Shown here piece after piece: positions 2,489 through 29,252 of a stretch of 32,000 bases of DNA. Location of the stretch: positions 510,001 through 542,000 of the forward strand of contig NZ_CP034549.1 of the NCBI RefSeq assembly GCF_003966335.1. The letters are read 5' to 3'. The notes under the pieces were generated by a model that was not told where the DNA came from, searched no databases, and saw only the letters and a program-made list of their open reading frames with translations. This stretch comes from Nonlabens ponticola (GTDB lineage Bacteria > Bacteroidota > Bacteroidia > Flavobacteriales > Flavobacteriaceae). Positions within the stretch are counted from its first letter, which is position 1. The number at the start of each line of letters is the position of its first letter. A program made the position numbers and the translations under genes.

Positions 2489-3523
2489 ATGAAACTGAGA
2501 CTACTGCGTTTTATAGGCGCCTTCTACCTCTTCTTTATCTTTTCAGAGACCTTGAGAGACATCATGAGGTATCCTGAGCGATGGCAAAATCAAAATTTTG
2601 ATACCGCAAGATGGTTCCTAGGTCATTTACAGAGCTCGCTTTTGTTTTTGGCTTACGCGCTATTCAGTTACCTATTCCTATACTATTACTATAAAAAAAT
2701 ATCCAAAACTGTTGTGTTTGTAGCGTTGACAGTCATAGCATTTGGAACCATAGGTTTGCGTTATGTGACTGAAGAAGTCATTATCAAAGCAATCACTGGC
2801 TACGGCAATTACTATGAAGGCACCACGGTCGCTTATTACATCGTCGACAACCTTTATTATGCGATGCTTTACACCGCATTTGGCGTGTGCTGGTTCTTTG
2901 TGCACTATGCTGTGGTGCGCGATAGACAACAACAGGAGTTACTACTAGAAAACAAGAAGTCAGAACTCGCTTTCCTGCGATCACAGGTCAATCCGCACTT
3001 CTTGTTCAACATGCTCAACAACATTTATGCACTTATAAACATGAAGTCTGACAAGGCTCTGGTTGCTACAGAAAAACTCAGTCAGCTGCTGCGATACAGT
3101 CTTTATGAGACTGATAAATTAGTGACCATAGAAAATGAACTCGATGCTGTAAGAAGTTATATAGATTTAGAGCGATTACGCTTTCGCGAAAGCGTACAAA
3201 CCACTATCACCGCTGCAACAAACGTACAGCACATACAAGTGACGCCATTTCTGCTCATGCCGTTGGTGGAAAATGCGTTTAAACATGGTGTGGTCACAGA
3301 TGCCACACAGCCTATCATGATAAAGGTGCAAACTGATCAAGATAGACTTGAAATTGAAGTGCTTAATGCGGTTGCAACTCGTGAAAAAGATGAGGTAGGC
3401 GGCATAGGTGTAGAAAACTTGAAAAAACGACTGGCGCTTACCTATGGTGATGATGCAGGAATGAGTACCGAAGTGATTGACGGCCAATTCATCGCTAGAA
3501 TTTTTATTAAATTGAAGCCATGA
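2489..3523 (+). CDS. LytS/YehU-type sensor histidine kinase
   Basis: The N-terminal half is polytopic and hydrophobic. It has the His_kinase (PF06580-type) signature RSQVNPHFLFNMLNNIYAL and a C-terminal HATPase region (ENAFKHG ... GGIGVENLKKRL). Its stop overlaps the start of the response regulator (ATGA at 3520-3523). Confidence 0.9.
   Translation: MKLRLLRFIGAFYLFFIFSETLRDIMRYPERWQNQNFDTARWFLGHLQSSLLFLAYALFSYLFLYYYYKKISKTVVFVALTVIAFGTIGLRYVTEEVIIKAITGYGNYYEGTTVAYYIVDNLYYAMLYTAFGVCWFFVHYAVVRDRQQQELLLENKKSELAFLRSQVNPHFLFNMLNNIYALINMKSDKALVATEKLSQLLRYSLYETDKLVTIENELDAVRSYIDLERLRFRESVQTTITAATNVQHIQVTPFLLMPLVENAFKHGVVTDATQPIMIKVQTDQDRLEIEVLNAVATREKDEVGGIGVENLKKRLALTYGDDAGMSTEVIDGQFIARIFIKLKP
3177..3196. 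repeat. HIP-like palindrome copy 1: TACGCTTTCGCGAAAGCGTA (20-bp perfect)
   Basis: Read directly from the sequence. It lies inside the histidine kinase CDS and encodes RFRES. Confidence 0.95.
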
Positions 3524-4206
3524 TCAAGTGTTTACTTATAGATGATGAGCCGCTAGCGCTGCAATTGCTCGAGTCACATGTGTCACAAACTGAAGGTGTT
3601 GAGGTGCTCAAAACCTTTACCAATCCCATTGAAGCTCTTCAAGAAGTAGAAACTCTCAAACCTGATTTGATCTTTTCTGATATCCAAATGCCTGAATTGA
3701 ATGGCGTTCAATTTTCCAAAATCATAGGAAACAAATACCCGATCATTTTTACCACAGCCTATGAGCAGTATGCGGTAGAAGGTTTTGAACTGGATGTTAT
3801 CGATTATTTACTTAAACCTATCGCCTTACAACGCTTTCAAAAAGCCGTTGACAAATTCAAAAATCGTTCAAAATCTGCCGCAGCAGATGCACCTGCAGCA
3901 GATTATATTTTTGTAAAGAGTGAATACAAAACTCTCAAAATCAATCTGTCAGACATCCATTACATCAAAGGCATGGCAGACTATGTGACGATTGTTACAG
4001 CAGATAAAAAAGTACACACATTAGAAAATCTGAAACACTATCAGGCCACTTTACCAGCCAGCAGCTTCATGCGCGTCCATAAAAGCTACATCATAGCCAT
4101 GGACAAGATTGAATTCATCGAGCGCAACCGCGCTGTGATCTTAGGCGACTACATTCCCGTAAGCGACACCTATAAAAAAGACTTTTTTGATCGTGTGAAT
4201 AATTAG
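3520..4206 (+). CDS. LytR/AlgR-family response regulator (REC + LytTR DNA-binding domain)
   Basis: The receiver domain has LLIDDEPLA, the phospho-acceptor context LIFSDIQMPELNG and a LLKP motif. The C-terminal LytTR region reads IHYIKGMADYVTIVT ... FMRVHKSYII. It is translationally coupled to the kinase. Confidence 0.9.
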   Translation: MIKCLLIDDEPLALQLLESHVSQTEGVEVLKTFTNPIEALQEVETLKPDLIFSDIQMPELNGVQFSKIIGNKYPIIFTTAYEQYAVEGFELDVIDYLLKPIALQRFQKAVDKFKNRSKSAAADAPAADYIFVKSEYKTLKINLSDIHYIKGMADYVTIVTADKKVHTLENLKHYQATLPASSFMRVHKSYIIAMDKIEFIERNRAVILGDYIPVSDTYKKDFFDRVNN

Positions 4207-4240
4207 TTGTTATCTTACTAGATGAAATAAAACCCATCTT

Positions 4241-5026
4241 ATGTTTAGAAAATTGATGTTAGTTGCGATGATATTCGCCTATGCTTTAGGGCACGCGCAA
4301 ACAACAGCAACTTCAAAATTATCAGATTCTTACTTATCTAATTTAGAGGTTTTTGACCCAAGGTATCCTGGAGATGTTGAAGTAACCTATTTGGTTGAAA
4401 AAGCTGCATTTTATGATGAGAACCTTCAATTAATACCAGCACAGTTGGTTCAGGATTACCGTTTAAATGCTGATTATTCAATTGACAAAATGTACATCGA
4501 TGATCAAAAATTTGTCAAGGTTGTAGTATATAGAAAAAGTACATCATCAGAAAAGATTGCCAAACAGAAAACACTAAATCAACTAGAAGCTAAAGATCCA
4601 AATGATTTTAGAGGTACTTACCCTAAACCATTTCAAATAACCGACATGAATGGAAAGGTATATACACCAGAGTCTCTACGTGGTAAAGTGGTGGTGATTA
4701 ATTATTGGTTTATTGGATGTGCACCATGCGAGAAAGAAATGCCTATGCTCAACCAGTTGGTTGAAAAGTATGAAGACAAGGATGTCATTTTCCTAGCGTT
4801 GACGCCAGATAAAAAGGAACAGGTTGCAAAATTTCTCAAAAAGAAAGATTTTGATTTTAACATCATTCCAGATGCATCTCAGATGATCACTGATTATAAC
4901 GTGACAGGATTTCCGACACATATGTTGATAGACAAAAAGTTGGTTATTCAATACTTAGGTCTTTTACCAGAAAAACTTGTATATGATAAATTAGACGAGG
5001 CTATCGGTATGCTTTTAGCCAACTAA
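4241..5026 (+). CDS. TlpA-like thiol:disulfide oxidoreductase (thioredoxin fold, AhpC/TSA family), secreted
   Basis: Signal peptide MFRKLMLVAMIFAYALGHAQ. The redox motif is WFIGCAPCEKEMP (CxxC), and GFPTHMLID is typical of the thioredoxin fold. Confidence 0.8.
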   Translation: MFRKLMLVAMIFAYALGHAQTTATSKLSDSYLSNLEVFDPRYPGDVEVTYLVEKAAFYDENLQLIPAQLVQDYRLNADYSIDKMYIDDQKFVKVVVYRKSTSSEKIAKQKTLNQLEAKDPNDFRGTYPKPFQITDMNGKVYTPESLRGKVVVINYWFIGCAPCEKEMPMLNQLVEKYEDKDVIFLALTPDKKEQVAKFLKKKDFDFNIIPDASQMITDYNVTGFPTHMLIDKKLVIQYLGLLPEKLVYDKLDEAIGMLLAN

Positions 5027-5113
5027 CTTATCGTTCAAATCACTCTAATTGATCTTGGTTTCAACCGTGCTGTTCAAAAACTACTTAAGGCGTGAATTGC
5101 TTACTTTTAAGCA

Positions 5114-6250
5114 ATGATCCCATCAAAATTACCCAATCTACCTACTTCCATTTTTGCAGAGATGAGTGAGCTGGCGGCGCAACATGGTGCGCTTAATCTG
5201 TCTCAAGGCTTCCCAAGTTTTCATGCCGCACAAGAATTGAAAGATCTTGCAGCACAGGCCATACAGAATAATCATAACCAGTATGCGCCCATGATGGGTA
5301 TTCAAGAGTTGCGCATCGCTATTGCACAAATGATGCAATCGCAGCATAGTGTCGCTTACGATCCCATGAGCGAAATATGCATCACGGCAGGTGCCACTCA
5401 AGCAATTTTTACCGCTATTCAGGCAACGATTTTCGCTGGTGATGAGGTGATCATCTTCTCGCCTGCCTACGATTGTTATGAGCCTGCCATCAAAATTGCT
5501 GGTGGCGTGGTGGTTCCGGTTCCTATGCAATTACCAGATTTTACGATCGATTGGGATCTAGTAAAGTCAAAGGTGACTGCCAAAACCAAAATGATCATCA
5601 TCAACTCGCCACACAATCCTAGCGGTGCGCTTCTGCAGGATGCAGACTTAAAACAACTGCAACAAATTGCTGTTGAAAATGATCTGTTGATTCTCAGTGA
5701 TGAGGTCTATGAATTCATGGTGTTTAATGATCATGAGCACCTCAGCGCATGCCGCTATCCTGAGCTGAAAGAGCGATGTTTTATCACAGGTAGTTTTGGG
5801 AAGACCTTTCATGTCACAGGCTGGAAGCTGGGTTACATCCTAGCGCCACCTCGGTTGATGAAAGAGTTTTTAAAGATTCATCAACAGGTAATTTTTTGCA
5901 TCAATAGACCTATCCAGCATGCGGTCGCCAACTATTTGCAAAATCCAAGCACCTATCAAGATCTAGGCAAATTTTATCAGCGTAAACGAGATTTATTTCT
6001 CAATTTGATCAAAGACAGTAGGTTCAAGTTTAAACCATCTGCCAGCACTTATTTTCAACTGCTTGATTATTCTAGCATCACAGATGAGCATGATTACGCT
6101 TTCGCGAAAGCGCTAACCATCAACCACAAGATTGCAGCTATACCCATCAGCGTATTTATGGAAGGTCGTGATCCCAAAATGCTACGCTTTTGTTTTGCCA
6201 AAGAAGATGAGGAATTGGTTGCTGCTGCTAAGATTTTAAATCAGATATAA
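5114..6250 (+). CDS. ybdL: Class I/II PLP aminotransferase, methionine/glutamine aminotransferase YbdL type
   Basis: It aligns along its length with my recollection of E. coli YbdL: INLSQGFP, NQYAPM.G, NSPHNPSG, SDEVYE and SFGKTFHVTGWKLGY (PLP lysine). Confidence 0.85.
   Translation: MIPSKLPNLPTSIFAEMSELAAQHGALNLSQGFPSFHAAQELKDLAAQAIQNNHNQYAPMMGIQELRIAIAQMMQSQHSVAYDPMSEICITAGATQAIFTAIQATIFAGDEVIIFSPAYDCYEPAIKIAGGVVVPVPMQLPDFTIDWDLVKSKVTAKTKMIIINSPHNPSGALLQDADLKQLQQIAVENDLLILSDEVYEFMVFNDHEHLSACRYPELKERCFITGSFGKTFHVTGWKLGYILAPPRLMKEFLKIHQQVIFCINRPIQHAVANYLQNPSTYQDLGKFYQRKRDLFLNLIKDSRFKFKPSASTYFQLLDYSSITDEHDYAFAKALTINHKIAAIPISVFMEGRDPKMLRFCFAKEDEELVAAAKILNQI
6097..6112. repeat. HIP-like palindrome copy 2: CGCTTTCGCGAAAGCG (16-bp perfect; left flank GATTA shared with copies 1 and 10)
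   Basis: Read directly from the sequence. It lies inside ybdL and encodes AFAKA. Confidence 0.95.
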
Positions 6251-8649: not shown

Positions 8650-9336
8650 TTATACTGAGATTGCCATGGTCGCTATGGAAATTCTTACGTTGGAAATTTT
8701 GGCCAGTTCGCGGCAGCACAAACTCAAAGTTGTGCCAGTCGTGATCACATCATCTACCAGCAATACGTGGCTGCCTTCAGGCAAATGTTCTTGCAGTACA
8801 TAAGGCGATTGCGTCTCGTCGCTTCGCATGGTTTGACTCAGCTGGGCCTGTTTCTTGGTATGGTGCTTTTTTAGGAGCACGCTTTCGCGAAAGCTAACAT
8901 CCAAGCCATCACTTAAACATTTACCAAATTTTGTCACCTGATTATAACCTCTTAAACGCTTCCTTTTGGGATGAACAGGCACAGGCACCACTACATCAAC
9001 ATCATTTAGAATTCCATCCTCAATTAGCAATTGCGTCAACCATTGCCCCATGAACGTGCCCACTTCTTCTCTACCCTGATATTTGAGCGCATGGATCATA
9101 TGTTGAATGGCGCCTATTTTTTCATAATAAAAAAGGCTCACACTTTGTTCAACAGGAGTTCTACCTATGAACAACCGCTGCATTTTATCGTCGCTTTTTA
9201 GATCGTGATAAGCCAGCGGTAATTGGCTGCGACACCTGATGCATAGTAGTTCTTCACCAGCCATAAGCGAGTTATGGCAATTGAGGCACACCTGCGGATA
9301 AAAGAGATTAACAAAGTCCTGTAGCAGGGCTCGCAT
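8650..9336 (-). CDS. comF: ComF-family protein (phosphoribosyltransferase domain)
   Basis: The N-terminus carries a four-Cys zinc-finger pattern (CLNC ... CIRC). The C-terminus carries the PRTase motif VLLVDDVITTGTT. Confidence 0.8.
   Translation of the reverse strand: MRALLQDFVNLFYPQVCLNCHNSLMAGEELLCIRCRSQLPLAYHDLKSDDKMQRLFIGRTPVEQSVSLFYYEKIGAIQHMIHALKYQGREEVGTFMGQWLTQLLIEDGILNDVDVVVPVPVHPKRKRLRGYNQVTKFGKCLSDGLDVSFRESVLLKKHHTKKQAQLSQTMRSDETQSPYVLQEHLPEGSHVLLVDDVITTGTTLSLCCRELAKISNVRISIATMAISV
8881..8894. repeat. HIP-like palindrome copy 3: GCTTTCGCGAAAGC
   Basis: Read directly from the sequence. It lies inside comF (minus strand) and encodes SFRES. Confidence 0.95.
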
Positions 9337-9378
9337 AAAAATTTGTTAGTTTAGTGATCCTAAAGATATTAAACCATC

Positions 9379-10260
9379 ATGAACCAAAGCAACGACCGCA
9401 GTTTTCTCAAGATCATTCTTGCCGTACTAGCACTGCTACTATTGGGACTAGGTTACTGGTCTTACATCACCTTTCAAGAAAACCAAAAGATCAAGGATAA
9501 TCTCGTCCAGGAAAAAGAAAATATTGAACAGGAACTCAAGAACATCTCTCAAGAATACAGCATTGAAATTGAGAAAGGTAACATGTTGAGCGACAATCTC
9601 ATCGATGCTCGCGAGCGCATCACTAGACTGCGCGATAGCGTGATCAATCTAGAAGGTAATGTTGCCGTGTTGAGCAGGCTGCGCAAGGAACTAGCAAACA
9701 TACGTGCAGAGCGTTCCCAGCTGGTTCAAAAGATAACCGAGCTTGAAGAAAGCAACAAATACCTCGTACGGGTTAATGACAGTACCATCGCAGCGCTCAA
9801 TCAAGAAATCATAAAAGCAGAGCTACAAGAGGAAACCGTGGTAAAACTCAACGAAAACGTTGAGAAGGCAGCCACACTTATCCCAACTAATTTTGAACCT
9901 GAAGGTGTGATCATACGACGCTCAGGACGCCAGATTGTCAACGATCGCGCCAGCCGTGTGGACGATATCAACGTATGCTTCACACTACCAGAAAATTCAC
10001 TCGCGACACAAGGCGTCAACAGGTTTTATCTACAGGTGATCAATCCAGCAAACAATGTCATGGGCCTAGGTAAAACCATCGAGTTTGAGAGCGGCAGCCT
10101 TACCTACAGCAAGGTCGTAGAATTTAATTATACGGGCAAGGAGCTGGATATCTGTGAACTGCTGGGTGCTGATGTTGAAAACATTGAGAAAGGCACCTAT
10201 CGTGTCAACCTCTTCAATGGCGCCATACGCGTTGGTAATAAAACGATTGATTTTAAATAG
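9379..10260 (+). CDS. Membrane-anchored coiled-coil protein, function unknown
   Basis: It has an N-terminal TM helix (ILAVLALLLLGLGYWSYI), about 150 aa of heptad-like E/K/L-rich sequence and a C-terminal beta-rich domain. I recognise no family motif. Confidence 0.7.
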   Translation: MNQSNDRSFLKIILAVLALLLLGLGYWSYITFQENQKIKDNLVQEKENIEQELKNISQEYSIEIEKGNMLSDNLIDARERITRLRDSVINLEGNVAVLSRLRKELANIRAERSQLVQKITELEESNKYLVRVNDSTIAALNQEIIKAELQEETVVKLNENVEKAATLIPTNFEPEGVIIRRSGRQIVNDRASRVDDINVCFTLPENSLATQGVNRFYLQVINPANNVMGLGKTIEFESGSLTYSKVVEFNYTGKELDICELLGADVENIEKGTYRVNLFNGAIRVGNKTIDFK

Positions 10261-10282: not shown

Positions 10283-10296
10283 GCTTTCGCGAAAGC
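10283..10296. repeat. HIP-like palindrome copy 4: GCTTTCGCGAAAGC (intergenic)
   Basis: Read directly from the sequence. It lies 23 nt after the stop at 10260 and about 90 nt before the glyQS ATG. Confidence 0.95.
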
Positions 10297-10369
10297 TGAT
10301 TAATTCACCAACAACGCTTAACCTGTGAGGTAATCGATGGCAGCATGGCTAGTTATGCGAGCCTTTTTT

Positions 10370-10377
10370 TACCTTTG
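10370..10377 (+). promoter_or_regulatory. Candidate -7 box TACCTTTG for glyQS (would give a near-leaderless mRNA)
   Basis: It matches TAnnTTTG and lies 6 nt upstream of the ATG at 10384. No clear -33 element is present. Confidence 0.25.
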
Positions 10378-10383
10378 CCAGCT

Positions 10384-12513: not shown

Positions 12514-15500
12514 CTAAAAATAAGCCTTCAACTGCACGCTGCCTGTGTGGATTGTTCTTGCAGTTTCTGAGTTTCTACCGCTGTAGCTCAAGTTGAGATC
12601 TAGAAAGCTGCTTATCTTCTTTTGTACCAATAAATTCCAGGTGAGGTTGCTGCCTGGTTGCAGTCCTTCCAACATCTGGAAACCTACAGGCGAGAATGCC
12701 TGGCCATCAAAATCATTTTGTACATAACGCAGCTCGCCGTTGACAGCATACTTCTGTGATTGGTTAAACGCCCAGGAAACGCCTAGGTTTTGTTGGTAAA
12801 GCGTGGCCTCGTCATTAATTTGGTTATCCTTATTATGCAATTCATAAAATACATCGATGCGATTGCTCTCGCCAAACAAATAAGAAAGTTGAGGCCTCAA
12901 TAAGTACTCATCGATCTTGAAGTTTCTATTAGCAAAATTCTCGCTGCGGCTGGCATTAAAACCAGTTTGCCCGTTGAAAGACAGCAACCAGCTTTCGGCC
13001 ACCTTATGTAAAAAACTTAATTGATGACTTTCCAGCTCGCTTTCTAGACTGCCTATACTTTGTAGATTCTCGGTCGTAGTGCTTAAATAAGTGTAATTTG
13101 ATGTGTACCGCTGCTTACCGCGATTGAAAAACAGGCTGTTTCTAAAGCTAAGATTAAGACCTAATTGATCATCTGTATCATCAAACGGATTGAGGTCAAA
13201 CTTTTCACCGCGTCGCTCCACCATGCGGTCAATCAAGTAGCTGGTTTGATTATAAAATCTGGACAGTATTTTTTTCAAGCCATTTTCACCAGACCACGAG
13301 ATAGGATTCAATGTGATGGTCTGGCTAAATTTATTCTGGTGAATAGGTAGAAAAATCTGATTAGGCAGCAAGATGCGCACATATCGGGCCTGATCCTGAA
13401 ATTGTGCTACCTCAAACTCATTCAGATCCTGAATGCCATCGCCATTATAGTCAATCCAGGTAAACGTTCCTTGACCAGCATTGACTTCCAGATAGGTAAA
13501 ATCCTGGCGCGGTATGGTACCGCTGTTAGTTTCATAAGTTGTGTTCCACAGAATTTTATTGGAAAACAGTTTACGGTTATAAATGAGCCTGCTGTTGAGC
13601 GAGACTTCATCATCAACGTCCTCATTGACATCGCTCAGCACACGATAATTAGCAAAAATCATCAAGTTAGACAGCTTATTCTTGATAGGTTGAGACTTTA
13701 AATAATATGTGTTTGAGGTGTTCACGCGCTGCAACTCATTATCTCGCAAACTATCATTCACACGATATCGATAGCCTATTTCCACAAATGTTGCCGTACT
13801 ATCGCCGCGACCCACAAATCCTTCATACTGGGTAAATCGTTGCGACAGCGGCGTCAATTGATTGGAAACTTTATCCTCTTGCTGGTTGTTCTCATGATCA
13901 ATTCTTGCTCCTATCCAGTAGTTAGAGATATTCTTGGTAACATCTGCATCGAGCCTATTAAAAGTACTTTCCTGTGTGGTGCTATTGGTATTGAGTACGC
14001 TTCCGCGAAAGCGTGACAACCATCCATCACCACGGTACCTACCAGCTGCATTGTGTCTCGTACCATTGTAACGATCCTGAAATTCCAGATGCTGAAACTG
14101 GTAGCTTGCCCTGATTGTGGTATCGCGTGTGTATTGAAGTCCCGTATTGGTAAATAATTGGTTGCCGAGTGTGTTATCTAGGTTCCAGTCGCGGTTGAAT
14201 TCAATGTTGTAAACACGTTCCACATTGCGGAAATCACTACCAATGTAATCTGTATTTACCTGCAATTGTAGTGACTGTAAGGAATCCTGACCCAGTAATT
14301 GCTGCTCTACTCCTAGCTTGATCGCCACATCGCGATTGTCATCATCTTCCACATTAGAAAAACGGTTAAGGTCATTGCTACTGGCAGCAAACTCGCTCAA
14401 TAACTGCGTGCTAGTAGTAGGTTTGTATTGTGCCTTGAAACCAGCAATCGTCAATATCTCTGGAGCAAAAAGTCGTACCACAGGCTCATAATTACCTTGC
14501 GGAATACCATTTATGGGCTCTACAAATTCATAGATATTTGAAATTGCCTGATCGTTGACCAGTCGATAGTTCCCTTGATTTGCACCAACTAATGAAAACC
14601 GCACATTGAAAAGCTGCTCACTAGCATCCTGCGAGAAAATAAATCGCGGTACGCCATTGATCACCTGCCTGCGGTATTGGATTCTATTTTCAGAAAAACC
14701 AGCTTCGACCGCGCTGGGTGCAATAGCAAGATCTGGATCGTCACCTGCGGCAGCTAAAACCTCAACCTGTTCTTGGTTTAGGTCTTGCTGTAACGGTTGA
14801 TTTTTGGCATCACTTTCTGTGTAGGCATAGGCATCAACCTTTAATTTATTGGACTCATAACCACCATTTGCATAACCTACAAATCGGGTAAAGTTGCGCT
14901 CGCTATATTGATATTCTATGCTGATGCGCATCTCACTGGTAATGGGAAAAGTCGGATTGAATCTTACTTCGCCAGCGTTGTAATCGATGATATAGTCTGC
15001 ATTCTCACCACGAGTAAGAATGACACCATTGACATACACACGCTCACTACCAGAAACCACCAGAATAAAGAGTTCGCCATTTTGACCTATTAATTTATAC
15101 GGTCCTTGATTACCTTCTTGACCAGTGAATCTAGTAGTATTAAATGTACCGCGCACCAGTGCACCAGCGCCACCTAGATATCCGCGAGAATCATCATCGC
15201 CTAGTTGGAACTGTCCAGAAATTCCCTGCACACGCTTGGTAAAATTGTTGAACTGGTAACCAGTCTGAATGAGATCCACGTCACCAGCTCTAATATTCCA
15301 GTTATCACTAAAAAGTTCAATAAATATCTGGTCAAATTCATCCAGTCGTTGGGAATAACCGTTCTGCGTTTGTGGTATGTTAGCATCTTGAATTGAGGCA
15401 CGTAAAGAAACTTTATCTGAAAGTTTTCCCACGATGCGCAAGTCCAGCTCGCTGTCCACAACGCTGCTTTGATTATTACCAGCACGCAATCCTCTAGTAA

Positions 15501-15921
15501 TGCTACCGCTTACTTGCAACCCATCAAAAGGAACAAAATTATTTTGAGTAGTGGACTTGCGCAACGCTACCAATCGCTCTTGCTGAGTCTCGTTTTCTAG
15601 AATGATGGATCTATCATACGCACTGTAAGACGGAAACAAATATTCTGATAGCCTTAGAAAAGAAACGTCTAACGAGTCATGCTCTCGCACCAATGATTCA
15701 TTGGGATATAGTCTAGAGTTCGTAAAGTCAACACGATAATTACTATCATCAACCGTATCGCCTAGAGTAGTAAACACTTTGAAATAGGAAGGATTGGCAC
15801 TGATGCTGTCAAACACGATGGTATCTCGCACAGCCATTCTTTTTGTAATGCTGCCATCTATCTTTTGCGCACTGGCACAGGTTGCCAGCAATATTAAAAG
15901 AAGAGTGCATTTAAAGGCCAT
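12514..15921 (-). CDS. Large outer-membrane beta-barrel protein, family unassigned
   Basis: The ORF is uninterrupted for about 3.4 kb. The signal peptide from the ATG at 15921 is MAFKCTLLLILLATCASAQ. Long stretches alternate in a beta-strand-like pattern rich in Y/N/S/T/G/R. The C-terminus ...GSVQLKAYF ends in the aromatic residue typical of BAM substrates. Confidence 0.75.
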   Translation of the reverse strand: MAFKCTLLLILLATCASAQKIDGSITKRMAVRDTIVFDSISANPSYFKVFTTLGDTVDDSNYRVDFTNSRLYPNESLVREHDSLDVSFLRLSEYLFPSYSAYDRSIILENETQQERLVALRKSTTQNNFVPFDGLQVSGSITRGLRAGNNQSSVVDSELDLRIVGKLSDKVSLRASIQDANIPQTQNGYSQRLDEFDQIFIELFSDNWNIRAGDVDLIQTGYQFNNFTKRVQGISGQFQLGDDDSRGYLGGAGALVRGTFNTTRFTGQEGNQGPYKLIGQNGELFILVVSGSERVYVNGVILTRGENADYIIDYNAGEVRFNPTFPITSEMRISIEYQYSERNFTRFVGYANGGYESNKLKVDAYAYTESDAKNQPLQQDLNQEQVEVLAAAGDDPDLAIAPSAVEAGFSENRIQYRRQVINGVPRFIFSQDASEQLFNVRFSLVGANQGNYRLVNDQAISNIYEFVEPINGIPQGNYEPVVRLFAPEILTIAGFKAQYKPTTSTQLLSEFAASSNDLNRFSNVEDDDNRDVAIKLGVEQQLLGQDSLQSLQLQVNTDYIGSDFRNVERVYNIEFNRDWNLDNTLGNQLFTNTGLQYTRDTTIRASYQFQHLEFQDRYNGTRHNAAGRYRGDGWLSRFRGSVLNTNSTTQESTFNRLDADVTKNISNYWIGARIDHENNQQEDKVSNQLTPLSQRFTQYEGFVGRGDSTATFVEIGYRYRVNDSLRDNELQRVNTSNTYYLKSQPIKNKLSNLMIFANYRVLSDVNEDVDDEVSLNSRLIYNRKLFSNKILWNTTYETNSGTIPRQDFTYLEVNAGQGTFTWIDYNGDGIQDLNEFEVAQFQDQARYVRILLPNQIFLPIHQNKFSQTITLNPISWSGENGLKKILSRFYNQTSYLIDRMVERRGEKFDLNPFDDTDDQLGLNLSFRNSLFFNRGKQRYTSNYTYLSTTTENLQSIGSLESELESHQLSFLHKVAESWLLSFNGQTGFNASRSENFANRNFKIDEYLLRPQLSYLFGESNRIDVFYELHNKDNQINDEATLYQQNLGVSWAFNQSQKYAVNGELRYVQNDFDGQAFSPVGFQMLEGLQPGSNLTWNLLVQKKISSFLDLNLSYSGRNSETARTIHTGSVQLKAYF
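13997..14014. repeat. HIP-like palindrome copy 5, degenerate: ACGCTTcCGCGAAAGCGT (1 mismatch)
   Basis: Read directly from the sequence. It lies inside the large OMP gene and encodes RFRGS. Confidence 0.8.
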
Positions 15922-16089: not shown

Positions 16090-17121
16090 TTACTTTCTTA
16101 GAATAGCTTCTAGCCTTTTAATAATTACAGACGTATCAATAGAATCAAGCGCTTCCACATAATCGGCAGGAACTTTTTTACCATAGATGGTGGTAGGCAT
16201 TTTGGGGTATTTGTCGCGACTTACAATTATCTGATTCTCTTCTGGCTGATTGATAGGTTTAAAACCTGCGTATGGATGTGTATTACCCCATAACGTGATC
16301 ACGGGAACGCCATACATAGCTGCCAGATGACCATTACCGCTATCCACACAAATCATAGTATCTAGATTTGAAATGACTTGAAGCTCTTCTTCTAGAGACA
16401 TCATACCTGCAAGATTGAAAACCGATGCATGGGTTCCGGCGGCAATTTTGAGCCATTGACATTCTTTCTCGCCACCGCCAAAAAGTAAGATCTGTACATT
16501 GTCGAGCAGTGATAACTCATGTACTATTTCTTGGGTTTTAGTTAGAGTTAAAGATTTTGAGGCATGAGCAGCAAATGGCGCAAAACCAATCCATTTTTGC
16601 TTATGACTACCCAGTATTTGCTGAATGTTATCTGGTACTGATGACTTGGGCAACACATGTTTTCCATTTAACTCAAATTTGAAACCTAGATTGTCAAATA
16701 CCTTGATATAGCGATCAACGGTTAGCGGTAATTGTTTGAAAAAATCGGACATACTGATGAGCTTTTTCTTGTCGTTTCTGCCTTTATCTATGACCGCTGC
16801 CTGAGTTTTAAATAGGAAAAACCGCAATAATTTTGTGCGCAGTACATCGTGAATATCTGCGATGGCATCTACTTCATAAGCTCTTAGAGTTTTTGCGAGT
16901 CGTCTTAATCCTAAGATTCCCTTATGGTCACCAGCGGTGTCGATCTCTTCTAGGACAATTCCTTGTACTTGATTTAAAATAGGTAGGAAACGCTTTCGCG
17001 AAAGCATAATTATCTCAACATCTGGATACTGTTCTCGCATGGCAAGAAGTACCGGTACCACGATTGCAACGTCACCCATCGCACTCAGGCGCATGACCAG
17101 TATGCGTTGTGGCAGGCTCAT
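16090..17121 (-). CDS. Glycosyltransferase family 9 (heptosyltransferase-like)
   Basis: The N-terminal signature ILVMRLSAMGDVAIVVPVL and the C-terminal VDSGNGHLAAMYGVPVITLWG are typical of GT9 enzymes. Its ATG directly abuts the stop of the upstream gene (17121/17122). Confidence 0.85.
   Translation of the reverse strand: MSLPQRILVMRLSAMGDVAIVVPVLLAMREQYPDVEIIMLSRKRFLPILNQVQGIVLEEIDTAGDHKGILGLRRLAKTLRAYEVDAIADIHDVLRTKLLRFFLFKTQAAVIDKGRNDKKKLISMSDFFKQLPLTVDRYIKVFDNLGFKFELNGKHVLPKSSVPDNIQQILGSHKQKWIGFAPFAAHASKSLTLTKTQEIVHELSLLDNVQILLFGGGEKECQWLKIAAGTHASVFNLAGMMSLEEELQVISNLDTMICVDSGNGHLAAMYGVPVITLWGNTHPYAGFKPINQPEENQIIVSRDKYPKMPTTIYGKKVPADYVEALDSIDTSVIIKRLEAILRK
16992..17005. repeat. HIP-like palindrome copy 6: GCTTTCGCGAAAGC
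   Basis: Read directly from the sequence. It lies inside the GT9 gene and encodes LSRKR. Confidence 0.95.
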
Positions 17122-18958: not shown

Positions 18959-20230
18959 TTATAGGTCAAAGCCTATATCCTCACGATAATACATCCTATC
19001 AAAATGCACTTTACGAGCATTGCGATAGGATTTTTTTGTGGCCTCTTGGTGCGATGCGGCAAAGCTTGTAATGGCTAGCACACGACCACCAGCGGTAATG
19101 GTTTTACCATCTTTGAGTGCCGTTCCTGCATGAAATACAATGCTGTCTTCCACTTTTTCCAAGCCTATTATTTCTTTACCTTTTTCATACACCTCTGGAT
19201 AGCCACCTGATACTAGCATGACGGTAGCTGCAGTTTGTTCATTGATTCTCAATTCTTCTTTATGTAGTTCCGCTTTCGCGAAAGCGTGCAAATGACCCAG
19301 CAAATCACTAGAAATACGCGGCAGTACAACCTCAGTCTCTGGATCGCCCATGCGCACATTGTACTCAATTACCTGCGGCTCGCCATCGACAATCATTAAA
19401 CCAATGAAAATGAAACCCTTGTAGGTGATTTGATCTTTTTTCAAACCATCCACGGTAGGTTTGATGATGCGCTCCTCAATCTTGTTCATGAGCGTCTCGT
19501 CTGCAAATGGTACTGGTGAGATCGCGCCCATGCCGCCTGTGTTGAGACCCGTGTCGTCTTCGCCGATGCGTTTGTAATCCTTGGCAGTAGGCATGACTTT
19601 ATAGGAGTCACCATCTGTCATGACAAAAACACTCATCTCGATGCCGTCTAGAAATTCTTCAATAACAACTTTGTTTGAAGCTGCGCCAAACTTTCCTCCA
19701 ACGAGCATTAGTTCCAGTGATTCTTTGGCTTCATCCGCACTTGGAATAATGAGAACACCTTTACCACCAGCGAGTCCATCAGCTTTTAAAACATAAGGTG
19801 GTTTAAGCTTATCAATGAATTGCATGCCTTGCTTTAGGGTTTCTTTATTGAAACTCTCATAAGCTGCAGTTGGAATGTCGTGCTTGATCATGAATTGCTT
19901 GGCAAACTCCTTACTTCCTTCCAGCACAGCACCTTGCTTTGATGGCCCAATAACATTGACATGCTGCAATTGCTCGTCCTCCTGAAAATAATCATAAATA
20001 CCTGCTACCAGCGGCGCTTCTGGACCCACGACTACCATGCTAATTTCCTTCTTGAGTACTAATGATTTGATAGCTTCAAAATCGGTAACCGATATATCAA
20101 CATTACTTGCAATTTGAGCCGTTCCTGCGTTACCTGGTGCTACAAATAGTTGAGTCAATTGATCGCTTGCCGCTATGGATCTTGCAAATGCATGCTCGCG
20201 ACCGCCGCTACCTAGAATAAGTACATTCAT
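18959..20230 (-). CDS. purD: Phosphoribosylamine--glycine ligase
   Basis: MNVLILGSGGREHA, the ATP-grasp core (ADGLAGGKGV ... EEFLDG.E.S) and VIEYN.R.GDPE are all present, at the full PurD length of 423 aa. Confidence 0.95.
   Translation of the reverse strand: MNVLILGSGGREHAFARSIAASDQLTQLFVAPGNAGTAQIASNVDISVTDFEAIKSLVLKKEISMVVVGPEAPLVAGIYDYFQEDEQLQHVNVIGPSKQGAVLEGSKEFAKQFMIKHDIPTAAYESFNKETLKQGMQFIDKLKPPYVLKADGLAGGKGVLIIPSADEAKESLELMLVGGKFGAASNKVVIEEFLDGIEMSVFVMTDGDSYKVMPTAKDYKRIGEDDTGLNTGGMGAISPVPFADETLMNKIEERIIKPTVDGLKKDQITYKGFIFIGLMIVDGEPQVIEYNVRMGDPETEVVLPRISSDLLGHLHAFAKAELHKEELRINEQTAATVMLVSGGYPEVYEKGKEIIGLEKVEDSIVFHAGTALKDGKTITAGGRVLAITSFAASHQEATKKSYRNARKVHFDRMYYREDIGFDL
19271..19286. 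repeat. HIP-like palindrome copy 7: CGCTTTCGCGAAAGCG (16-bp perfect)
   Basis: Read directly from the sequence. It lies inside purD and encodes AFAKA. Confidence 0.95.
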
Positions 20231-20296: not shown

Positions 20297-21592
20297 ATGG
20301 CGCTTCCGTTTTTCAGAAAGAGTTTACAGTGGCGAGGCTTTGACCTCAAGAAAGCTACCCAGCATCTTACTGATATTTCAAATGGAAATCATGATGGTAT
20401 TGAAGAGCGTAAAAAAGCTATTCTAGAACATCACTTAAAGTTCAATGCCTTCTACAACTCTCACGTGAGCGATAAAACAGCCGCGTGGGAAGATTTACCA
20501 ATTCTCACCAAAGCAGACTTACAGCAACCGCTGCATCAACGTTTGAGCAAAGGATATAGCACTAAAAATGTCTTCAAAGGATCTACCAGTGGTTCCAGCG
20601 GGCATCCCTTTTCTTATGCCAAAGACAAATTTGCACATGCCACGGCATGGGCCTCATTTGATCATTTTTATCAGATGCACGGCATTGATCTGGATTACTC
20701 GCTGCAAGCTCGGTTTTATGGGATTCCGTTAAGTGGTGCTGGTAGGTACAAAGAGCTGTTTAAAGATTTGATAGCCAACCGACAGCGCTTCCCTATTTTC
20801 AATATGAGCGATGAGGTATTGGGTAAATTTGTGAAGCAGTTTGAAAAAAAACCGTTTGAATACATCAATGGTTATACAAGTAGCATAGTACTTTTTGCAA
20901 ATTACTGTGACTCCAACAAAACAAAGCTCAAAAAACTGTGTCCTACTTTAAAGGCTTGCATAGTAACAAGTGAGATGCTTTTTCCTGATGATCGTAAATT
21001 ATTGGAGCGCGTTTTTGATGTTCCTATACTCAACGAATACGGAGCCAGTGAGGTAGGTCTCATCGCCATGCAGGATGAAACTGGAATGATGAGAATTAAT
21101 GACTTGACTTTGTGTGTTGAGATTGTTGATGACGAGAACAAACCAGTAGAAAATGGCGAGATAGGCAACATTATAGTGAGCGATCTCTATAACAAAGCGC
21201 ATCCATTCATCAGATATGCTATTGGTGATATTGGCAGCATTGTCGAGGATGAAAACGGTCATTTATATTTGAAAGAACTACAAGGTCGTACCAGTGATGT
21301 AGCCCGATTTGCTAATGGAAAAGTCATTCCAGGACTGACTTTCTATTATGTGACGAAAAGCGTTATCAGCGATGACTCAAACGTCAAGGAATTTATCGTT
21401 ATTCAAAAATCTCATGAGCTTTTTGAAATCGAGTATGTAGCTGACCAGCCACTTACAGACACAGAAAAGTCTAAGGTTGAAAAGAAGATGCTGGAATATA
21501 CGGGACAACAACTCTCTATTGAATTCACCCGATTACCTGCACTAGACCGCAGCAAACGAGGTAAATTGAAACAGTTTACAACATTGATCTAA
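20297..21592 (+). CDS. Adenylate-forming enzyme of the phenylacetate-CoA ligase / CapK family
   Basis: The P-loop-like motif is GSTSGSSGHPFSY. The YGASE motif is NEYGASEVG, and a C-terminal lysine sits in the context KRGKLKQF. The 431-aa size matches CapK-like proteins of capsule loci. Confidence 0.75.
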   Translation: MALPFFRKSLQWRGFDLKKATQHLTDISNGNHDGIEERKKAILEHHLKFNAFYNSHVSDKTAAWEDLPILTKADLQQPLHQRLSKGYSTKNVFKGSTSGSSGHPFSYAKDKFAHATAWASFDHFYQMHGIDLDYSLQARFYGIPLSGAGRYKELFKDLIANRQRFPIFNMSDEVLGKFVKQFEKKPFEYINGYTSSIVLFANYCDSNKTKLKKLCPTLKACIVTSEMLFPDDRKLLERVFDVPILNEYGASEVGLIAMQDETGMMRINDLTLCVEIVDDENKPVENGEIGNIIVSDLYNKAHPFIRYAIGDIGSIVEDENGHLYLKELQGRTSDVARFANGKVIPGLTFYYVTKSVISDDSNVKEFIVIQKSHELFEIEYVADQPLTDTEKSKVEKKMLEYTGQQLSIEFTRLPALDRSKRGKLKQFTTLI

Positions 21593-21612: not shown

Positions 21613-22386
21613 CTAAATACTTTTCTTCAGCTTGCGCTTGACCAAGAATTGTTCGTAGAAAAAACTCAACATTTTAAGGCTACTTTTTATACTTCCATAG
21701 CCTAAATGCTCACGATAAACTGCATAATTATACTTGATCAAACCCCATTTGGATGCCGATAAGCCATCGCCCAATCTGTAAGAAGCAATAGGCTCTTGAA
21801 TCCCGATGGCATCGCCGCCAGTTTTAAGGACGTCCAGCCACATGGCCCAATCCTGTCGTTTGCGCATGAGCGGTATCGGGATTTTACCTATGGCACTGGC
21901 GTCATAGATTCCTGTTAGATTACCTAGGTAATTGGTCTTAAGCAGCTCTTTATAAGTCAATACAGAGAAAACCTTGTGTATAGCTATTGGCTTGTCTGGA
22001 TCATTTTCAAAGATTTCATAAGCTCCATAACTTACCGCCTTGCCGCCTTCCTGCATGGCTTGTATCTGCGTGGTCAATTTATGCGGTTTCCATAAATCGT
22101 CTGCATCCAAGAATGCTATGTAGCGACCTGTCGCGAGTTCCAGAGCTTTGTTGCGTGTAAATCCAGCACCCTTGTTAGAATGGTTTTGGAGTAATTTGAA
22201 GTCTATGCCTTGCGCGGTGTTTTTTGAGGTATAATCTTTCGCGAAAGCGTAACTACCATCATCACTTTTATCATCAACGAGACATATCTCAATAGGTCTA
22301 TAATCTTGCTGCACGATGCTGTCCAGCGCCTGCCCTAACGTGTCTATCGCATTGAAAACTGGCATGATGACCGAGACGAGATCCAT
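21613..22386 (-). CDS. Family 2 glycosyltransferase
   Basis: VSVIMPVFNA, VDDKSDDGS and the DxD motif FLDADDLW are present. Its start abuts the stop of the upstream sugar transferase (22386/22387). Confidence 0.85.
   Translation of the reverse strand: MDLVSVIMPVFNAIDTLGQALDSIVQQDYRPIEICLVDDKSDDGSYAFAKDYTSKNTAQGIDFKLLQNHSNKGAGFTRNKALELATGRYIAFLDADDLWKPHKLTTQIQAMQEGGKAVSYGAYEIFENDPDKPIAIHKVFSVLTYKELLKTNYLGNLTGIYDASAIGKIPIPLMRKRQDWAMWLDVLKTGGDAIGIQEPIASYRLGDGLSASKWGLIKYNYAVYREHLGYGSIKSSLKMLSFFYEQFLVKRKLKKSI
22235..22250. repeat. HIP-like palindrome copy 8, degenerate: tCTTTCGCGAAAGCGT (13/14 of the core)
   Basis: Read directly from the sequence. It lies inside the GT2 gene and encodes AFAKD. 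Confidence 0.8.
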
Positions 22387-24770: not shown

Positions 24771-25985
24771 CTATACCTGCTGCGATAATGCCTCGATCCA
24801 TTGACTCAAAATTTGATCCTTTCCAAAGTTTGCTACCACATACTCTCTCGCACTTCTGCCTAATTTCTCTTGTGACTGTTGATCTGCTTGCCATTGCTGC
24901 ATAATCTCAATGGCCTTATCTACATTATAATTTGTCATGTAGACGCCTGCTTGAGCATCTTCAATGACTGTTTTAACCTCTGATAGTTTGTTTCCAACGA
25001 CCAGTGATGGTCTTGCACTGGCCATCATGCCTAGAAGTTTTGAAGGCATCACGGTATCGATGACATCTTCTTTTTGGAAAAGGATGTGCGCATCTGCACT
25101 GCAAAGCAAGTCGGATAAGTCATCGTAAGGTATAGGCTCATAAAAACTGACGTTTTCTTGTGAGAGCTGCCCTTGTAACCAGGTAAATTGAGAACCAGCT
25201 CCTACTATGGTTATGTGATAGTCTTTTTGTGGTAACGCTTTCGCGAAAGCAATAAAAAATTCCCAATCCTGTTTATCACCAACATTGCCGCTATATAAAA
25301 TCTTGAATCTAGGATCCTTTAGGTAGGCGTGAGTCTGTGAATGGGATGGATCGATCTTCACAGGATCAATCCAGTTGGGCAAATAGTATGTCTCGCTGGT
25401 AGTTTTTGATTTAAGCTTTGAAATCATCAAATGGCTGATGGTACTTACCACGCTAGCTCTATCTAGCAGCTTACTTTCAAATTTGAATAGCGCTTTGAAA
25501 ATCGACTTTTTACCAGAGCCTGAAAGTCCAGACTGCAGGGCAGCATCAAACTCAAAGTCTTGTATGTGAATCCAGTGATTGACTTTCCTGCGAGCGGCAT
25601 GTCGTTTACCCAGCGCCGCTGCTGCTGTAAACGGAATAATGGAAATAACCAGATCTGCTTTCTTGATACGCGACAGATTCCAAAAGCTACCCCATGAAAA
25701 ACTCAATAAATGAATGATGCGTTTGATGAAACTGGGCTTCTCTGGAACGTAGAATTTATAGCGGTAGATATCGCGGCCAGGCTGTTTTTCATGAACGTAT
25801 GACTTGCCTATATCATAGGGCGCCTGGATCTTCCAGTGCGGATAATAAGGTACGGCAGTAACCACATTGACATGGGCGCCAGCAGCTACTAGCGCATCCA
25901 CCATCTGGGTAGAATACAATCCTATCGCGGTATCTTCTGGCGCATAGTTAAGCCCAATAAAGGTGATGGATTTGCCCTGCAACAT
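24771..25985 (-). CDS. wcaI: WcaI-family glycosyltransferase (GT4)
   Basis: The N-terminus ITFIGLNYAPEDTAIGLYSTQM...VTAVPYYPHWKI matches the characteristic WcaI N-terminus (INY.PE.TGIG.Y...M...V.T..PYYP.W). Confidence 0.8.
   Translation of the reverse strand: MLQGKSITFIGLNYAPEDTAIGLYSTQMVDALVAAGAHVNVVTAVPYYPHWKIQAPYDIGKSYVHEKQPGRDIYRYKFYVPEKPSFIKRIIHLLSFSWGSFWNLSRIKKADLVISIIPFTAAAALGKRHAARRKVNHWIHIQDFEFDAALQSGLSGSGKKSIFKALFKFESKLLDRASVVSTISHLMISKLKSKTTSETYYLPNWIDPVKIDPSHSQTHAYLKDPRFKILYSGNVGDKQDWEFFIAFAKALPQKDYHITIVGAGSQFTWLQGQLSQENVSFYEPIPYDDLSDLLCSADAHILFQKEDVIDTVMPSKLLGMMASARPSLVVGNKLSEVKTVIEDAQAGVYMTNYNVDKAIEIMQQWQADQQSQEKLGRSAREYVVANFGKDQILSQWIEALSQQV
25237..25250. repeat. HIP-like palindrome copy 9: GCTTTCGCGAAAGC
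   Basis: Read directly from the sequence. It lies inside wcaI and encodes AFAKA. Confidence 0.95.
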
Positions 25986-27962: not shown

Positions 27963-28016
27963 AGCAAGATTCAAAGGTATGAAAACATGTCTAGCATGTA
28001 AGACCTTGCTTACACA

Positions 28017-29108
28017 TCAAGAATTTATGATGCGTTTTAGATTATCGGTGAAATGTGACACTCGATAATGCTTTTTTGCACGAGAGTAATTATGCTTACC
28101 TATCCTTGACATTTCATCAGGATTTGAAGACAGCTTCTCGAGAGCATTAGTAATGCTTGCTGGGTTTCTTGCCTCCACAAAAAAGCCGTTTTCAGCTTCC
28201 ACAAAAATATCTGGAATACCAGAGTGAGGCGTTACTAGACATAAATTACCAGTTGCCATGGCTTCAAGGATAGATATGGGTTGACCTTCCATGGAATAAT
28301 ATGTAGGTAATATGAAGACGTTAGACCAAAGCAGCAGGTCTTTTTTCTGCTGGACATCGACCACGCCCACATATTGCGTGTATTGAAGGTCAGCAAATAA
28401 TTGATCAAACTCATGTGTTTTCTCGCTTGAAATATTACCAGCAATTCTGGCTTGATAGCTTATACCTTTTTCCTTTAGGATCTTGAGAGCAGCAAGCACG
28501 TCAAAAATCCCTTTTTCTTCCATTAGATTACTTAGATATACAATTTGCAGCTTGTTGTACTCTTTTTTGGCTATTACCTGCTGTGGTAGGAATAACTCGT
28601 CAATCACAAAGTTTTTTAGGCTGTAGATTTTTTCTGATTCTATGAAAGGCTCAAAATTAGGCTTGAGTGAATCTGATAGGACGATGCCTTTATCAGTTTG
28701 AGACATGAGGTGGTGAAACAGTAGTTTTTTAATGCCCGTGAGCATGTGATATTGCCTTCCCAAAAAATTGCCGTGGATATGCTGTATGATTTGGGCGCCT
28801 GTGATGCGCGCCATGAGAATGAATAGGCTGTATTTTACAACTCCAAAAAACGTTTGTCCTGGTGTCAAATAAAGAATGTCCTTGCCCAGTACCTTATAAA
28901 AAGACAATTGTAGCTTTAGATAAAACCATAGTTTTTTGGCGCTTATCGCGCCCAACTTTTCATTAAAGTCTGGAAAGCTGCTGTTGATGCTACTCACACG
29001 ATAGGCAGCGCCTCGTGACAATTGATCATAAACGACTTTATTTGCCAGCGACACACCTGTCGTAGGTTGCGGGAACGGTCCTATAATAAGTATTTTTTTA
29101 AGAGACAT
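28017..29108 (-). CDS. Family 4 (GT-B) glycosyltransferase
   Basis: ILIIGPFPQPTTGVSLAN occupies the N-terminus. The C-terminal E-x7-E-like region is YYSMEGQPISILEAMATGNLCLVT. I prefer the ATG at 29108. It is the first gene of the minus-strand run 29108->21613. Confidence 0.8.
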   Translation of the reverse strand: MSLKKILIIGPFPQPTTGVSLANKVVYDQLSRGAAYRVSSINSSFPDFNEKLGAISAKKLWFYLKLQLSFYKVLGKDILYLTPGQTFFGVVKYSLFILMARITGAQIIQHIHGNFLGRQYHMLTGIKKLLFHHLMSQTDKGIVLSDSLKPNFEPFIESEKIYSLKNFVIDELFLPQQVIAKKEYNKLQIVYLSNLMEEKGIFDVLAALKILKEKGISYQARIAGNISSEKTHEFDQLFADLQYTQYVGVVDVQQKKDLLLWSNVFILPTYYSMEGQPISILEAMATGNLCLVTPHSGIPDIFVEAENGFFVEARNPASITNALEKLSSNPDEMSRIGKHNYSRAKKHYRVSHFTDNLKRIINS

Positions 29109-29238
29109 CAATCGGCAATATAGCTAAGTGTTCTATTACGGCGGCAAGGTAAGGTAATCGTATGGCAGTAGGAATAGGGTCACATGATTTTACCTGACAT
29201 AACCGCTCTAGAGTTGTAGAGATGATGATTGGGATTAC

Positions 29239-29252
29239 GCTTTCGCGAAAGC
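29239..29252. repeat. HIP-like palindrome copy 10: GCTTTCGCGAAAGC (intergenic; flanks GATTAC...aTAAT)
   Basis: Read directly from the sequence. It lies in the 247-bp divergent region between the GT4 operon start (29108) and the ORF at 29356. Confidence 0.95.

Follow-up and report, generated by a model that had tools for sequence, protein, structure and literature searches.

The 14-bp perfect palindrome GCTTTCGCGAAAGC, which usually occurs as the 16-mer CGCTTTCGCGAAAGCG, is a genome-wide feature of the Nonlabens-Dokdonia lineage and not a local oddity of the 32,000 nt of Nonlabens ponticola DNA in which it was noticed (contig NZ_CP034549.1, positions 510,001 to 542,000; this whole stretch is called the window below). 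We propose, with a probability of roughly 0.4, that this palindrome is a clade-specific self-DNA word that would be read by a protein dimer, would act when conspecific DNA is taken in or recombined, and would be kept by drive plus selection. By analogy, it is best read as a member of the same class as the uptake signal sequences (USS) of Pasteurellaceae, the DNA uptake sequences (DUS) of Neisseria and the highly iterated palindrome HIP1 of cyanobacteria. DNA uptake or recombination is the most likely of the functions that can be predicted for it, with chromosome organisation as a close rival.

The window holds eight exact copies and two copies with one mismatch, and none with two mismatches. 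Dinucleotide shuffles of the window lead us to expect 0.14 matches at up to two mismatches versus the ten observed, and none of 100 shuffles reached ten. Our recount agrees with the positions given in an initial annotation of this DNA, made from the sequence alone:

3180..3193, exact copy in the histidine-kinase gene 2489-3523 (+), read RFRES
6098..6111, exact copy in the class I/II aminotransferase gene 5114-6250 (+), read AFAKA
8881..8894, exact copy in the ComF-type phosphoribosyltransferase gene 8650-9336 (-), read SFRES
10283..10296, exact intergenic copy, 23 nt past the stop codon of the open reading frame (ORF) 9379-10260 (+) and 49 nt ahead of the class II tRNA-synthetase gene 10345-11928 (+)
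13999..14012, one-mismatch copy GCTTCCGCGAAAGC in the 1144-aa ORF 12514-15948 (-), read RFRGS
16992..17005, exact copy in the GT9 glycosyltransferase gene 16090-17121 (-), read LSRKR; orthologous site exact in Nonlabens sp. YIK11, N. marinus, N. dokdonensis, N. ulvanivorans and a Nonlabens-like metagenome lineage
19272..19285, exact copy in purD 18959-20230 (-), read AFAKA; orthologous site exact in Nonlabens sp. YIK11, N. marinus, N. dokdonensis and Nonlabens sp. SY33080
22235..22248, one-mismatch copy TCTTTCGCGAAAGC in the GT2 gene 21613-22386 (-), read AFAKD; orthologous site perfect (AFAKA) in Nonlabens sp. YIK11, N. marinus and N. dokdonensis
25237..25250, exact copy in the GT4/GT1 glycosyltransferase gene 24771-25985 (-), read AFAKA
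29239..29252, exact intergenic copy between the divergent genes 28017-29111 (-) and 29356-30423 (+)

Eight of the ten copies lie in long ORFs and the other two (10283 and 29239) between genes. Mapping the ORFs bears out the frames first assigned, the eight coding copies being read in all three phases as AFAK(A/D) four times, (R/S)FR(E/G)S three times and LSRKR once; GCTTTCGCGAAAGC contains no stop codon, whichever frame is taken, as had been claimed. The gene identities first proposed are matched by Pfam for the word-bearing genes (His_kinase, class I/II aminotransferase, ComF-type phosphoribosyltransferase, GT9, GARS in purD, GT2 and GT4/GT1), except that a Pfam search of the 1144-aa ORF, which had been called an outer-membrane protein, gave no match. 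By Pfam, the ComF-type gene is the only uptake-related gene of the window.

A scan of prokaryotes with one genome per species (596 Gb) recovered at least 120 tiles of 8 kb that carry the word. Among the matches listed, 25 are high-GC tiles from unrelated phyla with one copy apiece, which is the chance level for 596 Gb, and 95 are low-GC tiles, 43 of them with two or three copies; the source of the low-GC tiles listed is nearly always Nonlabens, Dokdonia, strain BBFL7 or an unclassified metagenome-assembled genome of the Flavobacteriaceae. The copy-bearing tiles of Dokdonia sp. R86516 among these matches lie at 0.88, 1.38, 2.15 and 2.82 Mb of 3.37 Mb. We also compared syntenic loci of 21 kb centred on purD, which were picked independently of the presence of the word; the PurD protein of the window matches that of N. 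ponticola at 100% identity and is about 80% identical to that of the nearest other species. Within 21 kb each, the loci of word-bearing lineages contain:

L121, Nonlabens sp. YIK11: 8 exact copies
L122, N. marinus: 4 exact copies
L123, N. dokdonensis: 6 exact copies
L124, N. ulvanivorans: 3 exact copies
L125, Nonlabens sp. SY33080: 4 exact copies
L126, a Dokdonia contig: 4 exact copies
L249, the Nonlabens-like metagenome lineage: 2 exact and 2 one-mismatch copies

The comparison with a Markov model that the initial annotation had suggested was run on the window together with L121-L126 (159.6 kb from seven genomes, hereafter the pooled loci) and gave 37 exact copies versus fewer than 0.01 expected under a first-order model. 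The syntenic purD loci of Gillisia (L246), of Subsaximicrobium (L247) and of a third outgroup with Gillisia-like synteny (L250) contain no copy at all. No other hyper-abundant word was found in the Gillisia and Subsaximicrobium loci, and six single tiles from other Flavobacteriaceae genera hold no repeated 12-mer except the word itself, which rules out 'dialects' of the word in neighbouring genera at the loci tested. The pooled excess and the recurrence across loci therefore identify a genome-wide feature of the lineage, neither local nor an artefact of assembly; the word turns up in related species, in dozens of mutually independent assemblies, which answers the worry, voiced in the initial annotation, that it might stem from assembly or vector contamination.

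Two tiles bear the name of another genus. One labelled 'uncultured Aquimarina sp.' (L110) has copies at 157 and 1090, 933 bp apart, and an Aquimarina tile (L071) has one at 7055; either a genome is mislabelled, or the word reaches past Nonlabens and Dokdonia. The Subsaximicrobium wynnwilliamsii locus (L247) has repeated 12-mers of the AACCCAC type (e.g. AACCCACAACCC), present five times and unrelated to the palindrome.

What is conserved at these sites is the DNA and not the peptide, in agreement with what the three reading frames had led the initial annotation to conclude. In codon alignments of purD, GT9 and GT2, all synonymous positions within the word are invariant in every species that has it; across species, the third base is invariant in just 9-12% of the codons whose amino acid is invariant. 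Among species at 61-73% nucleotide identity, the longest invariant run of each gene is the one at the word, with 18 nt in purD (next-longest 11), 15 nt in GT9 (next-longest 8) and 14 nt in GT2 (next-longest 8). The residues encoded at the site do vary: PurD reads AFAKAE in most Nonlabens species, AFATTSL or AFKNEQL in some Nonlabens lineages, and unrelated residues (AVSEGTL, KVSEQKL) in Dokdonia, Gillisia and others. Both N. ulvanivorans and Dokdonia lack the purD copy, and the former encodes AFA as GCC TTT GCC (then ACG). Comparing word sites with orthologues that lack the word, we saw no indel. The variable protein positions, the absence of indels and the invariant DNA therefore show, as the proposed alignment of orthologues was meant to reveal, that copies arise through point substitution at permissive protein positions (AFAKA, RFRES, LSRK) and in spacers, and that once formed they are held invariant by selection or drive on the DNA, with slow turnover.

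Individual sites illustrate both the retention and the turnover. The GCTTCCGCGAAAGC variant (RFRGS) recurs with the same mismatch in a syntenic ORF of similar size (1126-1135 aa) in Nonlabens sp. YIK11 (L121 16614), N. marinus (L122 16846) and the metagenome lineage (L249 16017), these ORFs being matched by synteny and not by alignment; either a near-perfect copy is still functional or the glycine is constrained by the protein. The GT4 gene of Nonlabens sp. YIK11 has a copy at nearly the same codon offset as the 25237 copy (about 248 versus 246, a comparison of offsets in unaligned genes). Upstream of purD, a gene of 431-432 aa with no Pfam match carries a copy in Nonlabens sp. YIK11 (L121 8993) and N. 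ulvanivorans (L124 9383), 554 nt into the gene in both, and its N. ponticola orthologue (20297-21592) is without it, which is an example of lineage-specific loss or gain. Between genera, copy positions shift, as judged by codon offset, at a preserved density; the GT9 copy of Dokdonia, for instance, lies about 12 codons upstream of the Nonlabens one. Since sites turn over between genera while their density is kept, no individual site is therefore essential.

The same comparisons bear on the notion that the word is a mobile element (a repetitive extragenic palindromic sequence, REP; a miniature inverted-repeat transposable element, MITE; or an insertion like the Rickettsia palindromic elements, RPE) or a conserved peptide motif. 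REP sequences and the bacterial interspersed mosaic elements (BIME) built from them, as well as MITEs, are likewise repeated palindromic DNA in many copies, and AFAKA does recur in proteins. Those elements are, however, extragenic, imperfect stem-loops of 20-40 nt or more, spread by REP-associated tyrosine transposases (RAYT) or by other transposases, whereas the Nonlabens word is about 74% intragenic, has no extended stem, makes no insertion relative to orthologues without it, and beyond its core conserves composition only. As to a peptide motif, three frames of the word are in use and give unrelated peptides in unrelated proteins, and other codons serve for AFA where it is absent. The orthologues free of indels, the core-only conservation and the codon comparison refute both ideas, to which we leave almost no probability.

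The copies are evenly spaced, a property that was absent from the initial annotation, as were the sharing of the word by two genera and its absence from neighbouring ones. Successive gaps in the window measure 2918, 2783, 1402, 3716, 2993, 2280, 2963, 3002 and 4002 bp, with a coefficient of variation of 0.26 (P=5e-5 for a value so low under uniform placement). In the tiles from other genomes, just one of 52 gaps between exact copies is below 1 kb, versus 27% expected, and the minimum is 856 bp. Spacing is about 3 kb, and local density about one copy per 3-5 kb. The consensus is strong as well: the tiles, which were ascertained on a perfect copy, hold 145 perfect, 15 one-mismatch and 14 two-mismatch sites in 642 kb, and the window gives the unbiased counterpart with 8, 2 and 0. 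Near-misses are about ten times rarer than perfect copies. Of 174 sites, 26% fall outside long open frames, whereas for random positions the figure is 10.6% (odds ratio 2.9, P=5e-8), an enrichment between genes of about 2.5-fold, and the intragenic copies are read as AFAKA 71 times, RFRES 30 times and LSRK 29 times.

USS and DUS are known to be spaced more evenly than random, to be frame-biased, under-represented in coding sequence and conserved in permissive core regions, and to be spaced to match conversion tracts (PMC2817400, PMC2397512). Over-representation, strong consensus, spacing, frame bias, enrichment in spacers, conservation and sharing by a clade make up this published signature of uptake sequences, and it is therefore as a self-DNA word that we would read the palindrome. 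Under such a mechanism, a symmetric protein would read the word in duplex form, the word would serve as an uptake signal and/or a Chi-like tag for conspecific DNA, and biased uptake or recombination (molecular drive) could, together with selection, account for the strength of the consensus, for the evenly placed copies and for their conservation over long times. More specifically, and only tentatively, the word may be what a sequence-specific system for DNA uptake or recombination recognises; Bacteroidota would then have their first self signal of the uptake type, and an unusual one in being a palindrome read by a dimer.

DNA of viral origin offers a further comparison. The lytic Nonlabens siphovirus P12024S (L245, 35.7 kb) has no copy at up to two mismatches, versus about 8-11 predicted from the density in the host. 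Matches in IMG/VR are mostly single and at chance level, and a few low-GC (pro)viral contigs carry two or three copies, 3-6.5 kb apart, a spacing like that in the host:

L215, (pro)viral contig with portal and capsid genes: copies at 191, 6705 and 11185
L179, (pro)viral contig with S49 protease and depolymerase: copies at 4210, 7851 and 10955
L162, (pro)viral contig with integrase: copies at 2735 and 6842

No close cultured relative of these contigs was found, the best portal match being 35% identical, to a Cellulophaga phage. Copies in these contigs versus none in P12024S therefore suggest that chromosome-resident DNA acquires the word and virulent phage does not.

The enriched unit is the whole dyad. 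In the pooled loci, the 16-mer CGCTTTCGCGAAAGCG is present at 28 of the 37 copies, TTCGCGAA and longer sub-words never occur outside the word, and the isolated half-site GCTTTCG is not enriched there (4 versus 8 expected). The central TCGCGA is at its expected frequency outside the word (19 versus 17.5 in the pooled loci, 7 versus 5.2 in the window), and CGCG occurs 175 times in the pooled loci versus 195 expected. These last counts speak to the classical idea on HIP1, also entertained in the initial annotation, that such a word is the by-product of a DNA methyltransferase and mismatch-repair bias, an orphan TCGCGA or CGCG methylase and a repair of the very-short-patch (VSP) type regenerating it. 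Both sub-sites do stand at the centre of the word, HIP1 is recognised by two methylases, and resident (pro)viral contigs gain the word while the lytic phage does not. The absence of any enrichment or avoidance of the sub-sites on their own nevertheless weakens the idea; moreover, no methylase or VSP site comes near the enriched unit of 14-16 bp in length, the sites in orthologues are conserved and not re-created at new places, and repair bias predicts no even spacing, so we regard this explanation as improbable. Restriction-driven avoidance or enrichment of TCGCGA or CGCG was rejected on the same counts.

Around the dyad, preferences computed from 141-172 sites are C at -1 (81% of copies), A at -2 (46%) and T at -3 (68%). 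The 20-mer TACGCTTTCGCGAAAGCGTA proposed at first as a probe is thus a weak consensus only, and the element consists of the strong 16-mer core and strand-asymmetric flanks of about 30 nt. The flanks mirror each other. On the 5' side a T-rich zone spans -13 to -3, and C is depleted (9% at -20..-11 versus a background of 19%, GC skew +0.47) as far as about -30, where the depletion ends sharply; the 3' side is the mirror image, A/C-rich and G-poor, with CAACA, ACAAC and ACCAC enriched 3-5-fold. No discrete second motif at a fixed distance was found in the flanks, only the A/C-rich composition, and past the core it is likewise composition alone whose conservation can be seen. Non-coding copies and coding copies of each phase share the flank pattern, on both sides relative to the sense strand. 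An extended hairpin or cruciform was rejected since complementarity between the two arms of a copy does not exceed that between arms of different copies (z=0.2-1.2), and real flanks fold at -13.6 versus -13.8 kcal/mol for chimeric ones; the core hairpin itself is weak (-1.9 kcal/mol alone, -6.0 with AC/GT added). As far as sequence can tell, the element is a 16-bp dyad with an apparent two-fold symmetric footprint of about 70 bp. From the full dyad as the unit and from mirrored flanks that do not pair, we infer that it is probably read as duplex DNA by a two-fold symmetric protein, dimeric or larger, with a footprint of about 70 bp.

These flanks also bear on a possible signal in RNA, in which a short hairpin and a C-rich, G-poor stretch would act in both directions, e.g. 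as a site of Rho loading or of processing by which antisense or untranslated RNA would be limited. On either strand the 3' flank is indeed C-rich and G-poor, hence rut-like, and with T preceding the hairpin and A following it the order is opposite to that of an intrinsic terminator, so that sense transcription would not be stopped. Yet the hairpin is weak and real flanks fold no better than chimeric ones, the pattern is equal on both sides regardless of gene orientation and extends to non-coding copies, the flank is just about 30 nt long, and even spacing is not predicted. This makes an RNA-level role very improbable; an Rfam search of the window gave no match.

The flanks and half-sites are equally relevant to a bidirectional Chi, at which the palindrome would stop an enzyme of the AddAB or RecBCD type arriving from either side and the GT-rich 5' flank would provide the 3' tail for RecA loading. 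On both strands, the stretch of about 30 nt that lies 5' of the word is rich in G/T and poor in C, and this is the very strand whose 3' end would come to lie at the site; Chi itself has a GT-rich context on that strand; Chi in Escherichia coli has a density comparable to that of the Nonlabens word (about one per 3-5 kb), and a Chi-like role has been proposed for HIP1. Known Chi sites, by contrast, are asymmetric, strand-biased words of 5-8 nt that are read single-stranded, whereas here the word is a perfect palindrome whose half-sites are unenriched outside it, so that the dyad is required, and even spacing is no known property of Chi. We judge a bidirectional Chi improbable, and a Chi-type monomer or half-site word was rejected outright, as GCTTTCG is not enriched outside the dyad.

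The same anatomy bears on the close rival, in which the copies would form a lattice bound by some abundant protein that organises the chromosome (nucleoid-associated, condensin-loading or of the topoisomerase type); every copy would be a high-affinity site kept by selection, and the 3-kb spacing would reflect loop or domain architecture. The perfect dyad, the mirrored footprint of about 70 bp and the unenriched half-sites point to a dimeric duplex binder, even spacing and conservation of sites at the DNA level would be expected of such a lattice, and the presence of the word in (pro)viral contigs, probably resident prophages, and not in the lytic phage fits a function in the chromosome. In form, the word resembles parS (the site of ParB) and the Noc-binding sites (NBS), which are perfect or near-perfect dyads of 14-16 bp with half-sites of the TTTC...GAAA type and bind a dimeric duplex binder. 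They differ from the Nonlabens word in the sequence and register of TTTC and in number, with parS numbering about 4-10 close to the origin and Noc sites about 70 in a genome versus several hundred copies extrapolated here, and intragenic occurrence at such density is not reported for them. Known architectural proteins, however, accept degenerate sites, whereas here 16 of 16 positions are identical at hundreds of sites with few near-misses; no candidate protein was identified; and the turnover of sites between genera at kept density leaves no single site essential. The same role was argued for HIP1 in 2018 by Xu et al. from conservation and periodicity (PMC5861425).

HIP1 (GCGATCGC) is among the closest in behaviour, as the initial annotation had recognised in what it took for a Flavobacteriia genome, and the host is indeed Nonlabens ponticola. 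Both words are GC-rich perfect palindromes, hyper-abundant through the genome by orders of magnitude, placed within genes in all frames as well as between genes, clade-specific, and conserved at orthologous sites above neutral expectation with non-random spacing; for HIP1, the over-representation, the conservation and the spacing were documented in cyanobacteria (PMC5861425). The Nonlabens word shares neither the sequence nor the phylum of HIP1 (Bacteroidota versus cyanobacteria), and has 14-16 bp with asymmetric flanks of about 30 nt versus 8 bp. Density is about one per 3-5 kb versus more than one HIP1 per gene, evenness is short-range versus a periodicity of 10-90 kb, and TCGCGA and CGCG inside the Nonlabens word carry no signal of their own, whereas known methylases act on internal sub-sites of HIP1. 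Recent experiments connect HIP1 with natural transformation, and a role as an uptake or Chi-like signal has been suggested for it; whether its function lies in chromosome structure or in transformation is under debate (PMC5861425; bioRxiv 10.1101/2024.09.10.611283; 10.64898/2026.06.24.733823).

With USS (AAGTGCGGT plus AT-rich flanks) and DUS (GCCGTCTGAA) the word has in common a strong consensus in what, extrapolated from local density, are probably hundreds of perfect copies, as well as even spacing, frame bias, under-representation in coding sequence with enrichment between genes, conservation at permissive positions of core genes and occurrence in related genera; USS also join a strong core to flanks of biased composition (PMC2817400, PMC2397512). 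USS and DUS often form inverted pairs that serve as terminators, whereas the Nonlabens word is itself a perfect dyad. Among flavobacteria, the related genus Riemerella is naturally competent and R. columbina prefers its own DNA, with no uptake word found among k-mers of up to 10 bp (PMC7965970).

Several points weigh against an uptake or recombination signal. Each of its statistical hallmarks is equally expected of sites selected for a chromosomal function, and the function of HIP1 is itself debated. USS and DUS are asymmetric 9-12-mers, whereas the Nonlabens word is a perfect palindrome of 14-16 bp with 30-nt flanks, and the strand polarity of these flanks is left without explanation. DUS are absent from recently acquired DNA, whereas the word occurs two or three times in some (pro)viral contigs. 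Finally, we know of no competence, uptake bias or cognate receptor in Nonlabens or Dokdonia.

The 14-mer and its 12-mer core were not found in searchable full texts, which leave out subscription-only literature, so that a prior description is possible. The searchable literature contains no paper that ties highly iterated palindromes to Flavobacteria, and the genome papers of Nonlabens and Dokdonia make no mention of the word. As a word of the HIP/USS class, it would stand apart by its phylum, by a length twice that of HIP1, by its perfect palindrome and by an extended footprint that is asymmetric. Detailed descriptions of genome-wide self words come so far from three clades only (Pasteurellaceae, Neisseriaceae and cyanobacteria), and both their upkeep by drive or by selection and the role of HIP1 are long-standing questions. 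A fourth independent case, in another phylum, would provide a fresh test system in which a longer dyad of 16 bp is statistically unambiguous, the phylogenetic boundaries are clean (present in Nonlabens and Dokdonia, not in Gillisia and Subsaximicrobium), and the hosts are cultivable, well-studied rhodopsin model strains. Should the word be an uptake or recombination signal, these abundant marine Flavobacteriia would transform naturally with a bias to their own kind. In marine Flavobacteriia, where genetic manipulation is difficult, the word could make transformation more efficient, as DUS and HIP1 do in their own hosts. It is also a near-perfect binning marker for contigs of the clade and a ready bait for a new sequence-specific DNA-binding protein.

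The loci show some further features. At the left end of the window, the ORF 162-1157 (+) has a Schlafen group 3 DNA/RNA helicase domain (Pfam, E=3e-61) and is possibly part of a defence locus running past the left edge. The Dokdonia metagenome contig (L126) has at 12629-13624, between DUF6427 and DUF4254 genes, a D12-class (Dam-like) DNA methyltransferase gene that is missing from this position in every Nonlabens locus. In N. dokdonensis (L123), two small accessory insertions, a ParE-toxin pair just upstream of purD (9371-9843) and a GIY-YIG gene after GT9 (14384-14680), interrupt a synteny that is otherwise kept. Among other palindromes, TTCGAA is strongly avoided (0 versus 10.3 expected in the window, 5 versus 54 in the pooled loci), which suggests a TTCGAA-specific restriction system across the clade, and ATCGAT and TGCGCA are about 2-fold enriched.

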